Assembly (NCBI RefSeq): GCF_030013205.1
Contig: NZ_CP122649.1
Direction: 5' to 3' (one strand)
Source of the DNA: Escherichia coli
GTDB lineage: Bacteria; Pseudomonadota; Gammaproteobacteria; Enterobacterales; Enterobacteriaceae
DNA: 64,000 nucleotides
Shown here: in pieces, positions 54,301-60,300 of the stretch
Numbering within the stretch: the first letter of the stretch is position 1
How the letters are laid out: each line of letters starts with the position of its first letter
Made by a program: the position numbers

Positions 54301-57300
54301 AAGAATGGGAATAAAACCCTAGCACCGTCATTTATCTTTCTGCATACAGACCAGCAACTCCGCCCATTTATCAATTCGGATTATCAGCCAGCCGGTGCCA
54401 GCTGGAGAAGTGATAAAGGTTTCAGGCTTGGCCTTTTCTTTATGAATGAGCGAGCCTCTAAAATTAATAAAGACCAGTTTGATTTTATTGCAGTAATAGA
54501 CCCATTGACCTTTCAGTCAGAATTTGATGCGACATGGTCCCGTGGTGAATTTGATGACCCTCTAAAGGCATTACGGTATTCAATTGTTTCTGAAAACTTG
54601 TCTTCCGTCTGGGTGAAATGGCCCGTAAAAAACCTGCAACCGAGGAAAGAAACGGTGATGGCCGATTACTGGTATGACTATTATTCACCTCATTCCCCAG
54701 CTCAGCAGGCTGCTTGCACAGCAACGGTGACTGGAATAGATGGGAATGTATCCGGCGAAACTATTTACATGCTCCAGATCGCTTTAGAGCGGTCGACAGT
54801 TGAGTACCAGCTTGTAAAATCGCTAGGGGTCATATTGCTACTGGATAATACAGGAAATTTGGTATCGGAGGCGCAGCCGCACTTTGATATAATCATCAAG
54901 GCATGCATATCGGGCGTCAGAGACTTTGTTCTTCAGAATCCTCGGACGCTGGGTTTTGAAAACAAGGTTGCATAGTTATAAAAAATCTTGCCGTTCTCAA
55001 GGCATCATTAAAAATTAAAATGAGGTATACATGGTACAAGTACTCAACACCACTGGTTTGAATTATCAACTTGAAAAAACAATCACTGAAGCTGAGGAAA
55101 GGATAATTCTCATTAGCCCATACCTTAAGCTTAGTAATCGCATTAAAGAGCTGATCGAAGATAAAAATAGACTAAAAGTTGACATCAGAATAGTTTATGG
55201 GAAATCAGAACTAAACTCTAAAGAATATGAATGGTTAACAAACCTGCCTTTTGTACGCCTTAGTTTTTGTAAAAACCTCCATGCAAAATTATATGCCAAT
55301 GAAAATCAATGTATTGTGTGCAGTCTAAACCTTTATGATTTTAGTCAGATTAATAACCATGAAATTGGAGTGTTAATTATTAAGGAGCAGGAGAAGGATG
55401 CATACACTTCATCGTTAAATGAAGCTCAGCGACTGATCAGAATCAGCACAGATAACATTCAGCCACTAACAACAGATAAAGAAACAACAGGTTCAAAAGA
55501 AAGTGAAAAAACTAATAAAGAGTCATCCGACTTCACTTCAGCCTTTCATGAAGAACCATTAACAAATCAAAATGGATTGATTACTGATTTAAATACAAAT
55601 TCAAAACTCACTTCGACAAATCTAGCAAAAAATCATAAAACTGATTTGTTATCTCTATATAAAAAATTAATCGAAGCTGGATATCTCATGGACGTAGAAG
55701 GAAAATACATATTGACTGATGCTGGCATAGCGGCAGGGGCAGAAGCCAAGCCAAATCGATATAAAAAAGGAGAAAACTATTTTCTGTGGCCTGATAACCT
55801 AGCATTATGATTTTACATCACGTACTGTGTCCCTGCGTAGCCATGAGGGACATAGAAGGGTCAATGAAAAATAGCTTGTTTAGTACTGATTCGAATACTG
55901 GGGTCACCTTTACCATCTCGCCTCACGGCCAGGGATGTAAACTGTCTGTAGAGCCTGAATATCGTCGCAAAGGAACACAAAATTACGATGGCTGGTTCCC
56001 TCGATATTACACTAAGCCACAATACGCTAAAGCAGCATTGACACGGTTTCTTGGGGAACCTGTTAATTGGTTGGATTGTAATGACCATAATTAGGGCTTT
56101 CAGACAGTTAGCCAACAAAAAAATCTTTAACTCACCAACAATATTGAGAATTACCAAATGGAAAATCTGGATGTTGTATCAGCGGTAGATTTTTACTTAG
56201 AAAAAGCATTTTATTTATTTGGATTCATAATGTTAGGTATGGCATGGCTTACTTTTCGTGCTGGTTCAACTTATCAGCATTTTAAAAATGCTGATAAGTT
56301 AGTCAGTGAAGGTAGAGGCTCAGTTTCAAGCGGTAAAGAGCCTGAAATGATCCGGCGGCTTAAGTTCCAAACATTGATCTGGTACATTGCTAATTGTGTG
56401 GTGTTAGCATTATCCACTATTGCTTTTGGGTATTTATTTTATCTTCTACACAGTTAATCAAACAATGAGAGATTTTTATTTTCTATAATCAGGTACATAT
56501 TTATTTTCTTGGAGATATTGATGAACGAAAACAATCCACTTCTGCAATCTGAACTGCTGTTTTGAATACGTTAGTGGAGGTAATGCCTATGGTATTAGAT
56601 ATCATGACTGTTTTGGCCTTTGCGTTTTTGGTTCTGTATAAAATAGCTTCACGAATCATTTCTATGTCTGGTGGTGCGATAAGGTTCTGATTTTCAGAAC
56701 CTTTTTTTAAAGTTTACTAGAGTAGATTTCATTTTGAATAAACGTAAGATACTCCTCACTTTGACTGCCTTTCCTAAATTTTTTCTGTCCTTCAAAATCT
56801 ATATCAGGTATGAAATGTATTAACTGGCTATCTTGGTAAAGTGAAAGAACGGAATTTTGATTGAGCACCTTAGAGTCCATTAATTGATAAACTGATTCAA
56901 TACATGCACCTATAAGAACATCACACAATTGCACGCTTGGGCTTTCTTTCGAATCAATTTGATAGACTTTTTTAAGGTTTAGAGGGAATGAGATAGTTGC
57001 TATCTCGGAATGTTTAAACTCTCCTTCCTTATCACAATTGATCAAAAAGTTAAGGCGTTCATTGTAAGTTAGCAGATTTTTAGAACGATCATGCTCAATT
57101 GCATACTCTCCAGAGGACATCATTTCCGTGCGAGAAATTAATGCATTTAAAATAGTAAATGAGGCATCAGTGCTAATTCCATCAGTCATGATGGCATCAA
57201 TGCAATCTGGGTGGTTAAATGCCAAAGGACCAAAAAACTCTTTTAACCTTTGCCAATCAAGCCTCCTTATTTTGCTTATTAGCAAACTCACTGAATCTAA

Positions 57301-60300
57301 TGTTTTTTCTTTCATAGCATTTTGAAACTGAAGCAGAACACTGATGAATCCCCTAATGATTTTTATCAAAATCATTAAGTTAAGGTAGATACACATCTTG
57401 TCATATGATCAAATGGTTTCGCCAAAAATCAATAATCAGACAACAAAATGTGCGAACTCGATATTTTACACGACTCTCTTTACCAATTCTGCCCCGAATT
57501 ACACTTAAAACGACTCAACAGCTTAACGTTGGCTTGCCACGCCTTACTTGACTGTAAAACTCTCACTCTTACCGAACTTGGCCGTAACCTGCCAACCAAA
57601 GCGAGAACAAAACATAACATCAAACGAATCGACCGATTGTTAGGTAATCGTCACCTCCACAAAGAGCGACTCGCTGTATACCGTTGGCATGCTAGCTTTA
57701 TCTGTTCGGGCAATACGATGCCCATTGTACTTGTTGACTGGTCTGATATCCGTGAGCAAAAACGGCTTATGGTATTGCGAGCTTCAGTCGCACTACACGG
57801 TCGTTCTGTTACTCTTTATGAGAAAGCGTTCCCGCTTTCAGAGCAATGTTCAAAGAAAGCTCATGACCAATTTCTAGCCGACCTTGCGAGCATTCTACCG
57901 AGTAACACCACACCGCTCATTGTCAGTGATGCTGGCTTTAAAGTGCCATGGTATAAATCCGTTGAGAAGCTGGGTTGGTACTGGTTAAGTCGAGTAAGAG
58001 GAAAAGTACAATATGCAGACCTAGGAGCGGAAAACTGGAAACCTATCAGCAACTTACATGATATGTCATCTAGTCACTCAAAGACTTTAGGCTATAAGAG
58101 GCTGACTAAAAGCAATCCAATCTCATGCCAAATTCTATTGTATAAATCTCGCTCTAAAGGCCGAAAAAATCAGCGCTCGACACGGACTCATTGTCACCAC
58201 CCGTCACCTAAAATCTACTCAGCGTCGGCAAAGGAGCCATGGATTCTAGCAACTAACTTACCTGTTGAAATTCGAACACCCAAACAACTTGTTAATATCT
58301 ATTCGAAGCGAATGCAGATTGAAGAAACCTTCCGAGACTTGAAAAGTCCTGCCTACGGACTAGGCCTACGCCATAGCCGAACGAGCAGCTCAGAGCGTTT
58401 TGATATCATGCTGCTAATCGCCCTGATGCTTCAACTAACATGTTGGCTTGCGGGCGTTCATGCTCAGAAACAAGGTTGGGACAAGCACTTCCAGGCTAAC
58501 ACAGTCAGAAATCGAAACGTACTCTCAACAGTTCGCTTAGGCATGGAAGTTTTGCGGCATTCTGGCTACACAATAACAAGGGAAGACTCACTCGTGGCTG
58601 CAACCCTGCTTACTCAAAATCTATTCACACATGGTTACGTTTTGGGGAAATTATGAGGGGATCTCTCAGTGCTCAGCATGTTTGAGTGCTTTACTCGCCG
58701 CGGGTTGAGAAATATGTAAAACTTCAGCCGCACGCGTTAAGGAACCACAAGTCATTACAGCATAAAAGATATCGAGATGTCTTAATTTCATTCCATGTAG
58801 CCTACTGATTATTTATTTCTACGGACTATTCTAACGAATAAAGTATAAATAATCAGATATACTCGTCATAATTCAAATTTTGGTTTAGTTGTCACGAGAA
58901 TTAATTCGTAAACGTGCAAGCTAAATAGATTGACTAGGGGAATATACGGGGTAAGAAAGCGGCTCGGCATACTGCCCTATAATAAATTGTTAGGAGAAGT
59001 ACGCCGAGTAGTGTGTAGCTATTAGGTAAAGTATGTACCAATTTCAATAAATATTTTAATTAAGATACTGTTTGAAATATCAACAATAAAGGCACCGACC
59101 ATAGGAACGACAAGGAAAGCTTTATGTGATGGTCCAAATGCTTTTGTGACTGTTTGCATATTCGCAATTGCTGTTGGTGTTGCTCCCATACCAAAGCCAC
59201 AGTGACCCGCGCTGATCACGACAGCATCATAATCTTTGCCCATCATTTTGAAGGTGACAAAGCAGGCAAATAGCACCATGACAACAGTTTGTACAGCAAT
59301 GATAATTAATACTGGCCCTGCCATGCTTGCCAATTGACCAAATTTTAATGACATTAACGCCATTGCCAAGAAAAGCGATAAAGCAACGCTACCTAATACA
59401 TCGACGGTCGGCTCAAACACTTCGTGTTTAAATACATGAGTCAGTGTATTACGGATAATAATACCGACAAATAAACACCAGACAAAAGTAGGCAGTTGCA
59501 GAAAAGTATCTTTAAACAATGCACTGATATAGCCACCAACAACAATACAGATAATCAGCATTGAAATGGTTTCAATAACGTTATTTGCATTGATTTTTCT
59601 TTTGACGCTTGGTTGCTCAAAAGCTTCAACGATAGTGTCGCGCTCTTGCTCGGTTGTTTTAGGAATAGAGACCTTTTTCAAAAGATGACGGGCAACAGGG
59701 CCGCCAACTAAACCACCCAACACTAATCCAAGTGTTGCACAAGCCATCGCTAATTCAACGGCGCCTGTTACACCATATTTATCAGCGAGAATAGGGCCCC
59801 ATGCTCCGGCATTACCATGACCACCTGTTAGAGTAATTGAACCTGCAATTAAGCCAATAAATGGACTTTCATTCATCATGACAGCCATACTCATGCCGAC
59901 AGTATTTTGAATGGCGATTAGGATCGTTACTGCAATAGTTAATAGAACTAACGGCTTTCCTCCTTTAATCAGTCGAGAAAAGTCAGAACTTAGCCCGATA
60001 GAGGAAAAGAATGTGAGCATTAATAAACTTTGCAATGAAGCATCAAAAGTAAACGAATAACCTGATGTTTTATCAATAATTAACAGAACAATTGCAACAA
60101 TAAAGCCACCAACGACGGCTTCTGGTATGTGGTTTTTTTGTAGGAACGGGGTAAATTTTACGACAAACATTCCTATGAGTAGCGCGATACATGCGACTAA
60201 TAATGTATAACTGGCATCTAGGATCATTTTTTTACCTCTATTAGTTTACCAGAATTTTCACTATAACAATTTAACAATAGTGAAAAATGAAGTTACTTTG

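Follow-up and report, generated by a model that had tools for sequence, protein, structure and literature searches.

Do the genes of an AT-rich islet on an IncHI1 plasmid form one acquired defense module, or have unrelated pieces of DNA come to lie side by side? The islet spans positions 55031-57340 of a 64,000 nt stretch of Escherichia coli DNA from contig NZ_CP122649.1 (hereafter the window). A first-pass annotation had described it as horizontally acquired and as encoding a 259-aa nuclease-like protein of the phospholipase D (PLD) family, a two-helix membrane protein (ORF99) and a convergent 203-aa protein, which together might constitute an abortive-infection (Abi) or restriction-like module silenced by a plasmid H-NS. 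We find that the islet is a recombination/insertion scar of three unrelated pieces and no functional module. With moderate confidence we favor the reading that the PLD protein is an intact, lone nuclease-type enzyme, that ORF99 and a further small gene, ORF76, belong to the plasmid backbone, and that the 203-aa ORF is a dead remnant of a DUF3800 gene. The PLD gene is likely the only intact gene of consequence in the islet.

The window belongs to an IncHI1 plasmid: positions 40000-64000 match NZ_CP122645.1, a 216.7 kb E. coli record from pig feces, at 100% over the full length, and islet copies with 100% identity are found in pHCM1 of Salmonella Typhi CT18 and many other IncHI1 plasmids. The reported drop in GC content was borne out (0.355 over the islet vs 0.478 for the whole window); this is the lowest-GC 2.3-kb stretch of the window, and only 0.5% of sliding windows are equally low. 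The 259-, 99- and 203-aa ORFs and the HKD motif lie where they had been placed, and an H-NS-family gene is indeed located nearby, at a distance of 8.8 kb instead of 9 kb. The right end of the islet, 57340, coincides exactly with the boundary of an IS10 copy. This boundary, the truncated state of the 203-aa gene and the extra small ORF between the PLD gene and ORF99 had been overlooked.

Mosaic structure of the AT-rich islet

Pairwise comparisons between plasmids placed breakpoints at 54944/54945, 55861/55862, 56498, 56558 and 57340/57341. The first piece, segment A, begins within the upstream 307/325-aa gene, for which it provides the final ~10 codons; a spacer carrying a GAGG Shine-Dalgarno sequence, the PLD ORF and 51 bp complete it. 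Homology between the window backbone and the Pantoea plasmid pPSP-75c ends at 54944 and restarts at 55862, pPSP-75c having 65 unrelated bp in place of segment A, and the sister IncHI lineage devoid of segment A is ~92% identical to the window backbone. More distant IncHI-type plasmids without PLD have the gene order DUF1173-dcm, then SNase, 313-aa, 76-aa, 99/104-aa and 97-aa genes, from which segment B, carrying ORF76 and ORF99, is judged to be ancestral. Segment C is the retained end of a unit consisting of a DUF3800 gene and an ISNCY transposase gene.

These pieces vary independently among plasmids. R27 and pSD134209-1 have lost 55970-56656 and keep both PLD and an intact DUF3800 gene, ORF76-ORF99 are present without PLD or DUF3800 in the Pantoea and sister plasmids, and an IncY plasmid carries DUF3800-ISNCY alone among the islet pieces. 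The proposal of a single acquired Abi or restriction-like module made up of PLD, ORF99 and the 203-aa protein, possibly silenced by H-NS, is consistent with the adjacency of the genes, the uniformly AT-rich tract, weak similarities in PADLOC (PLD to DrmC and MkoB, the DUF3800 fragment to PDC-M04A) and the prediction that DUF3800 proteins are retron effectors (PMC7736814). What defeats this proposal is the three-part mosaic makeup of the stretch. The three genes differ in breakpoints and distributions, ORF76 and ORF99 are backbone genes found without PLD, PLD homologs never retain these neighbors, and the third supposed partner is a truncated fragment without the DE motif. In R27, the genes expressed together with PLD are SNase and R0152, which lie on its opposite flank, whereas the adjacent spacer ORF R0150 is not expressed and DUF3800 (R0149) is marginal. 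The nuclease-plus-partners module is thus highly improbable. The silence of R0150 carries no information on ORF99, which R27 does not have. Across 80 genome and 67 viral PLD loci, no conserved neighbor was found beyond lineage-specific synteny or inovirus genes; the PLD gene has no conserved partner gene and would act alone.

Horizontal acquisition holds for parts of the islet: the PLD segment is an indel and the DUF3800 piece comes from an ISNCY unit, but ORF76 and ORF99 are ancestral. Accordingly, the comparison of presence and absence among related plasmids, which the first-pass annotation had proposed as a check, assigned the two small ORFs to the backbone and found the PLD segment missing from the sister lineage. 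The flanking backbone occurs in 276 plasmid records (204 at ≥95% identity and 80 at 90-95%) and the PLD gene in 196, essentially all at ≥99% identity. PLD is near-fixed in R27-type plasmids and missing from the sister lineage; its presence is lineage-specific, not sporadic. Some S. Typhi plasmids combine a backbone of 97.8% identity with a PLD gene of 99.9%, and this mismatch hints at exchange of PLD by recombination. Low GC content had been taken as a sign of acquisition, but PLD genes are low in GC throughout the family, even at syntenic chromosomal loci. At 95% of 77 genome loci, the PLD gene exceeds its surroundings in AT content (median gap, 6 points), so composition is weak evidence for recent transfer and insufficient as proof.

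The DUF3800 remnant and the small ORFs

Comparison with intact homologs shows that the 203-aa protein is what remains of the 3′ part of a DUF3800 (RNase H-like) gene and is inactive. The intact gene of pSD134209-1 and R27 encodes 348 aa beginning with MITFSMDESG and matches phrog_12991 from end to end. The fragment in the window is 99.9% identical to its 3′ part and joins IS10 at VLLQFQNAMKEK. The minus-strand ORF extends over 56707-57396 (229 aa), its upstream codons being IS10 DNA, and the 203 aa annotated in RefSeq start at an internal ATG at 57318. Two features define DUF3800 proteins, a DE motif at the N-terminus and a fold like that of RNase H2 (PMC7736814). Beginning at residue ~139 of 348, the window copy does not unite the N-terminal DE motif with the C-terminal region, the combination that characterizes PF12686: the DESG motif (residues 7-10 of the intact protein) is missing, while the C-terminal part scores 22.9 bits against a Pfam cut-off of 21. 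It differs from the DUF3800 effectors of type VII retrons in lacking residues 1-138 with the DE motif, and no retron reverse transcriptase is encoded nearby.

In the plasmids with this IS10 junction, no other piece of the DUF3800 gene was found. The 5′ part has therefore been deleted, and a simple insertion of Tn10 into the gene is ruled out. pSD134209-1 has its Tn10 copy 3.4 kb away and pointing the other way, and compared with pHCM1 its flanking block is inverted. These comparisons point to truncation via an IS10-mediated rearrangement; the DUF3800 gene would have come with the ISNCY transposase and later been cut by this IS10/Tn10-associated event. The IS10 copy itself is unremarkable, sharing with IS10/Tn10 the terminal sequences, RNA-OUT, the transposase, the 1,329-bp length and the gltS/Tn10 genes that follow it, and matters here as the cause of the truncation. 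RNA-OUT was the sole match in an Rfam scan.

The DUF3800-ISNCY block travels at 99.4-100% identity, and at least 127 plasmid records of various types hold most of it. No convincing terminal inverted repeats were found at the termini of the unit, and a three-way comparison bounds one end only, near position 5502-5623 of locus L016. At loci L002:4330-7654 and L016:2164-5548, DUF3800 and the ISNCY transposase gene are found together at 99.6-100% identity; the IncY and Citrobacter plasmids add a pentapeptide-repeat (Qnr-like) gene to the block.

ORF76 and ORF99 are old IncHI backbone genes. Homologs of ORF76 keep the 76-aa length at 72-84% identity; a start at 55807 would give 95 aa and an overlap with the PLD stop codon, but this form is not the conserved one. 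In the sister plasmids L173 and L174, the 76-aa gene is called directly after the 313-aa gene and is followed by ORF99. ORF76 has no annotation in the RefSeq records of these plasmids. Relative to the Pantoea copy, ORF76 shows 6 synonymous and 18 non-synonymous differences with an N-terminal cluster, which is an ambiguous pattern, and ORF99 shows 9 and 4. The ORF99 family is tiny, restricted to Enterobacterales and conserved in length; R27 and pSD134209-1 are devoid of it. Of the two membrane helices ascribed to ORF99, the one at residues 72-99 is strongly hydrophobic and the other (about 17-34) is weaker. Neither small ORF matches a Pfam, PHROG or PADLOC family. ORF99 also contains a 33-bp palindrome with perfect 16-bp arms (56268-56300; AACTTATCAGCATTTT A AAAATGCTGATAAGTT), which is identical in the Pantoea copy and degraded in ~70%-identical homologs that retain the protein sequence.

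Table 1. Coordinates of the islet, its segments and the surrounding features in the window
Feature	Position	Strand	Basis or remark
Plasmid H-NS-family gene (R27 R0164 / Sfh type)	~45820-46224	-	Annotation; context only, 8.8 kb from PLD
EcoRII/Dcm-type C5 cytosine methyltransferase (R0154), divergent	51880-53307	-	Pfam DNA_methylase, 250 bits
SNase-type thermonuclease (R27 R0153)	53531-54046	+	Pfam SNase, 79 bits; signal-like N-terminus
307/325-aa protein (R0152)	54052-54975	+	Annotation; HRCPTC motif
PLD segment (segment A)	54945-55861		917-bp indel vs sister IncHI plasmids; GC 0.347
259-aa PLD-family protein gene (R27 R0151; WP_000250919.1)	55031-55810	+	ORF, Pfam, fold
Single-HKD nuclease-like domain	55031-55450 (aa 1-140)	+	Domain of the 259-aa PLD protein
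Disordered T/E/N/S-rich linker	55451-55597 (aa 141-189)	+	259-aa PLD protein; composition, pLDDT <50
Winged-helix domain	55598-55807 (aa 190-259)	+	Domain of the 259-aa PLD protein
Segment B (ORF76 + ORF99)	55862-56498		Ancestral backbone, judged from gene order in distant IncHI-type plasmids
ORF76, backbone gene	55864-56094	+	Conserved 76-aa form
ORF99, 99-aa small membrane protein (WP_000429174.1)	56158-56457	+	Backbone gene, IncHI-type plasmids
Segment C, retained end of DUF3800 + ISNCY-transposase unit	56558-57340		99.4-100% identity with IncY, Citrobacter, Enterobacter and other plasmids
Terminator-like hairpin	56681-56703		G+C-poor 10-bp stem and T-run just past the DUF3800 stop; consensus match only
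DUF3800 gene 3′ remnant	56707-57340	-	Codons ~139-348 of a 348-aa protein; pseudogene fragment
IS10 (annotated ISVsa5), gltS-proximal Tn10 arm	57341-58669	+	1,329 bp; truncates the DUF3800 gene
IS10 outside end, CTGATGAATCCCC	start 57341		Terminal sequence
RNA-OUT	57386-57455	-	RF00240, 97 bits vs gathering score 41
IS10 transposase (IS4 family)	57448-58656	+	ORF
IS10 inside end, ...GGGGATCTCTCAG	58669		Terminal sequence

Domain architecture and relatives of the PLD protein

The 259-aa ORF contains the HKD-like motif LHAKLYANENQCIVCSLNL. Its aa 16-128 match positions 3-127 of the 132-position Pfam profile PLDc_2 (PF13091) with 31.4 bits against a gathering cut-off of 27. The AlphaFold (AF2) model comprises two confident domains separated by a disordered linker, in agreement with the low-complexity linker and C-terminal domain noted at first, and the predicted local distance difference test (pLDDT) score is ~90 for aa 1-140. 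Foldseek matched this N-terminal domain to NucT (6ehi), Nuc (1byr) and Zucchini (4ggj) with a probability of 1.0 and E-values of 3e-7 to 2e-5. The L-INS-i (MAFFT) alignment of homologs, including Nuc of R46, placed H84, K86, E91, S98, N100 and E111, which are invariant among 109 homologs, in register with H116, K118, D123, S131, N133 and E144 of the Nuc preprotein; removal of the 22-residue signal peptide turns H116, K118, S131, N133 and E144 into H94, K96, S109, N111 and E122, the active-site residues of Nuc. Compared with the consensus HxK(x)4D(x)6GSxN, the motif has Glu91 instead of Asp and Cys97 (Thr or Ser in relatives) instead of Gly. A sequence search of the PDB with the PLD protein returned spurious desmoglein matches only, and a search with the family profile returned nothing; the link to PLD nucleases therefore rests on the Pfam match, the fold and the MAFFT alignment. 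These lines of evidence uphold the assignment to the Nuc type of the PLD superfamily, and the HKD-like motif does align with PLD nucleases, the point on which the original description had been staked.

The non-catalytic proteins TrmBL2 and FAM83 are also among the top fold matches of the N-terminal domain. Together with the Glu-for-Asp substitution, this could mean that the PLD-like domain serves as a DNA-binding or scaffold module without activity. However, the full H/K/S/N/E set is invariant across the 109 sequences and in register with Nuc, which makes such a role very unlikely. Pseudo-PLD proteins are not known to retain these catalytic residues.

The C-terminal domain was modeled with a pLDDT of 91, and its fold matches are winged-helix DNA binders of the excisionase/MerR type. 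A profile search with this domain collected 831 representative proteins. It occurs in tandem at the N-terminus of abundant ~290-aa proteins (PDC-S69 type) and elsewhere is fused to NERD nucleases, the single-stranded DNA (ssDNA) ADP-ribosyltransferase DarT and a superfamily 1 (SF1) helicase; weak matches to KilA-C/ANT were obtained as well. These fusions mark it as a predicted, shuffled module for nucleic-acid targeting. In a 228-aa protein of Klebsiella pneumoniae (P0020), the winged helix is replaced: the PLD domain (aa 1-146) continues in frame into the DNA-binding C-terminal domain encoded by the neighboring H-NS gene (compare locus L004:6015-7635). This chimera is the single member of its cluster and may be a one-off deletion.

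Neither a signal peptide nor a transmembrane helix is predicted in the PLD protein, and it is most likely a cytoplasmic, dimeric DNA phosphodiesterase of BfiI-like architecture. By analogy with Nuc and BfiI, two single-HKD catalytic domains would dimerize to form one composite active site, in which His84, helped by Lys86, Asn100 and Glu111, would attack the DNA phosphodiester without metal ions and form a phospho-histidine intermediate. The fold and the domain fusions suggest that two winged-helix domains on flexible ~50-residue tethers would keep the dimer on DNA.

The closest known proteins share parts of this architecture. Nuc of the IncN plasmid pKM101/R46 and NucT of Helicobacter pylori have the same fold as the N-terminal domain (template modeling score ~0.66 on the target), and Nuc has the same catalytic residues and is likewise encoded on a conjugative plasmid beside transfer genes. 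In contrast to the window protein, which is cytoplasmic and carries a linker and a winged helix, Nuc and NucT are exported and have no extra domain; sequence identity to them is 13-19%. An N-terminal PLD nuclease combined with a variable C-terminal sensor, winged helix included, is a recognized class of defense endonucleases (PMC12191111). BfiI, SauUSI and END follow the same logic, an N-terminal HxK PLD domain with separate C-terminal DNA recognition, but their C-termini are a B3-like barrel, a helicase, an EVE domain or an inactive EndoIII, whereas that of the window protein is a small excisionase/MerR-like winged helix, distantly KilA-C/ANT-like. Neither hallmark of type IIS restriction enzymes like BfiI, a cognate methyltransferase and a B3-like pseudobarrel, applies: a screen for C5 methyltransferases found one near PLD at only 2/147 homologous loci, and the C-terminal domain is no pseudobarrel, and no helix-hairpin-helix/EndoIII Pfam match corresponding to the C-terminal iEndoIII/OGG-like domain of END nucleases was found in the protein.

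The window protein has its PLD nuclease domain in common with DrmC (DISARM) and MkoB (Mokosh), with PADLOC E-values of 6e-6 to 9e-3. With the NCBIfam DrmC model it scores 18.8, the cut-off being 133, and no other DISARM or Mokosh gene is present near PLD, where the neighbors are SNase, R0152, ORF76 and ORF99. PADLOC PDC-S69 shares the winged helix, with PLD aa 191-258 matching positions 4-69 of the 289-position profile (E = 8e-8) and nothing beyond; proteins of this type have N-terminal tandem winged helices, another C-terminal part and no PLD domain. Literature searches on IncHI1 phospholipase D, inovirus PLD and the R0151/HCM1 identifiers found no study of the PLD gene.

Expression, distribution and possible roles of the PLD gene

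The genes upstream of PLD are known from R27, for which coordinates verified that R0151 is PLD, R0152 the 307-aa gene, R0153 SNase, R0154 dcm, R0149 DUF3800 and R0148 the ISNCY transposase. R0152 had no match in Pfam, PADLOC, NCBIfam or PHROGs. Published microarrays of R27, with 100 units as the threshold for expression, detected R0151 in the wild type at low levels, with 189 units at 25°C rising to 401 at 37°C (PMC7366339). In the htdA mutant at 25°C, R0151 rose 13.5-fold, R0152 16.3-fold, R0153 15.6-fold, R0154 11.1-fold and R0157 11.8-fold, compared with 11-fold for traI and 9.2-fold for traG. The flanking genes R0147-R0150 gave 1.6-fold, 3.2-fold, not expressed and not expressed, R0158-R0159 changed at most 3.2-fold or were not expressed, and the mutant signal dropped along R0153-R0152-R0151 from 10801 through 4389 to 2548 (PMC7366339). 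Within the block, derepression is strongest for R0152.

SNase-R0152-PLD is likely one transcription unit, with PLD as its distal gene on IncHI1 plasmids. Relief of the HtdA brake at 25°C in R27 derepresses these three genes and the divergent dcm to the same degree as the transfer genes. The opposite temperature response in the wild type suggests that PLD also has its own promoter; a promoter scan returned fewer sites than in shuffled controls. Deletion Del13 of R27 (138,432-144,479), which removes R0150-R0157, was obtained, and among the deletions only Del16 reduced stability (PMC4853401).

Co-derepression with dcm, located 1.7 kb away on the opposite strand, and the precedent of BfiI, a PLD-family restriction enzyme with a cognate methyltransferase, would fit a restriction-modification pair in which CCWGG methylation protects against a BfiI-like enzyme. 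However, dcm is present without PLD in sister plasmids, two unrelated genes separate the two, and a screen for neighboring C5 methyltransferases found none in the Klebsiella plasmids or at 145/147 other loci, one of the two positive loci being an IncHI1 contig. We regard this pairing as very doubtful indeed.

The PLD family has 3,637 detectable homologs, many of them full-length at 45-60% identity, and is listed in PHROGs as phrog_9329 without function. It occurs in 625 plasmid records, of which 582 are conjugative; ~420 large plasmids, mostly Klebsiella IncFIB/IncHI1B, carry a homolog at ~58% identity, and in the Klebsiella IncHI1B plasmids the order is thermonuclease, PLD and H-NS, with SNase and PLD adjacent. 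On chromosomes, homologs lie amid housekeeping genes in Acinetobacter, with syntenic flanks in about half of the species sampled, and the same flanks are shared by 22/23 Psychrobacter species. In Vibrio, Photobacterium, Hafnia and S. bongori, PLD is directly downstream of and co-oriented with inovirus genes, and the host genes beyond differ. IMG/VR contains 67 viral contigs with PLD, mostly of 8-12 kb, with a Zot-like gene in 64. Seven named Vibrio inoviruses carry PLD between zot and the ORF9 repressor, in a variable region to which the authors could assign no function (PMC10790759). Among species-representative genomes, PLD is near Zot in just 3/80 loci. The inovirus link is lineage-restricted, and inovirus cargo as a family-wide rule was moderated given the contrast with the virus-only collection.

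Several records in these collections deserve separate mention. The exact 259-aa protein is encoded on at least 1,000 contigs, the longest being 5.06 Mb, a length suggesting that, in at least one genome, an IncHI1 segment has integrated into the chromosome or the assembly is wrong. A 5.6-kb contig of a GTDB species representative (JAEWTL010000050.1, 'MAG: Bacillota bacterium OH_SDB_141') is ~100% identical to the IncHI1 dcm-SNase-R0152-PLD region and is probably a mis-binned enterobacterial plasmid contig. At prophage-linked loci of Vibrio and Photobacterium, PLD is followed by a conserved pair of ~435 and 51-54 aa without a Pfam match (loci L010-L013, 7857-9654; L021, 8237-9692), and the Vibrio loci have an additional 107-aa gene, also without one.

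This distribution bears on what the enzyme does. As a stand-alone innate-immunity endonuclease of the class with a C-terminal sensor (BfiI, SauUSI, END), it would be carried by mobile elements against phages and rival plasmids. Its architecture fits that class, the gene is variable-region cargo in inoviruses, including the seven named Vibrio phages and the 64/67 IMG/VR loci with Zot, it resides on ~625 plasmids that are mostly conjugative, its winged helix recurs in NERD, DarT, helicase and PDC-S69 candidates, and one PLD context adjoins a GmrSD_N protein. This explanation is possible but doubtful, because the locus is syntenic and core-like in Psychrobacter and about half of the sampled Acinetobacter species, proximity to Zot is rare outside the viral collection, no known defense-system model was matched, and the lack of linkage to a methyltransferase leaves self/non-self discrimination unexplained.

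The enzyme might instead serve the DNA metabolism of the element itself, acting on ssDNA intermediates of conjugation, rolling-circle replication or uptake. Derepression with the transfer genes at similar magnitude, SNase adjacency in two diverged IncHI lineages, a Psychrobacter locus near a gene resembling ruvC by motif, NucT as the top fold match and the presence of the family in ssDNA handlers (conjugative plasmids, inoviruses and Moraxellaceae) are in line with this idea. Many Moraxellaceae are naturally competent, and NucT is linked to ssDNA and transformation. Yet sister IncHI plasmids without PLD are still typed as conjugative, R27 Del13 has no stability defect, the inovirus gene is in the variable and not the core region, and NucT, unlike the PLD protein, is not cytoplasmic; we consider this function unlikely. 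Still less probable is a more specific proposal, in which the PLD-winged-helix proteins (phrog_9329/R0151) would be an uncharacterized nuclease family of ssDNA-entering elements, namely IncHI conjugative plasmids and inoviruses, and of Moraxellaceae, and would act as an exclusion or establishment factor on incoming ssDNA or its conversion to double-stranded DNA, for example by destroying rival plasmids or phages at entry.

Within the favored reading of a mosaic scar with one intact nuclease-type enzyme, the most likely role of PLD, proposed tentatively, would be cutting foreign or competing DNA during the transfer-active state of the plasmid, with processing of the element's own DNA as the main alternative. 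Several points weigh against this reading. The PLD motif is non-canonical (Glu for Asp; Cys, Thr or Ser for Gly), and sequence ties the protein only loosely to PLD nucleases of solved structure: the PDB yielded neither a sequence nor a profile match, and hhalign of the PLD family with the single Nuc sequence covers aa 1-57 only, with a probability of 1%. The enzymatic activity of the whole family is a prediction, and PADLOC gave no system match beyond generic PLD similarity. The syntenic, housekeeping-flanked locus of the 22/23 Psychrobacter species fits a role in conflict or defense poorly. Co-derepression is not very specific, as the htdA mutation derepresses 139/181 expressed R27 genes, and in the wild type 37°C slightly favors R0151 but 25°C favors R0153 and R0154 (PMC7366339); these arrays come from R27, another plasmid than that of the window. 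Finally, either an insertion with a later deletion or an intramolecular transposition could account for the IS10 event.

The accessory arc of these plasmids contains several nuclease genes. In pHCM1, a gene annotated as a Shedu immune nuclease (locus L001:24182-24982) is located ~10 kb past IS10, and two HNH-endonuclease genes lie at ~25758-27726 of the window, between the FIA replicon and H-NS.

The enzyme class itself is known; what is new is an uncharacterized PLD-winged-helix nuclease family found on IncHI plasmids and inoviruses and on chromosomes of Moraxellaceae, with expression linked to the transfer regulon in R27. For annotation, the '203-aa DUF3800 protein' becomes a Tn10-truncated pseudogene, a conserved 76-aa gene has to be added, and PLD is regrouped with SNase-R0152 (and dcm), away from its downstream neighbors. 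The same PLD family occupies the functionally unassigned variable region of Vibrio parahaemolyticus inoviruses. In Salmonella Typhi and E. coli, IncHI1 plasmids are carriers of multidrug resistance, and if PLD is a transfer-coupled nuclease, it could affect which plasmids and phages are able to live alongside these hosts or to invade them.

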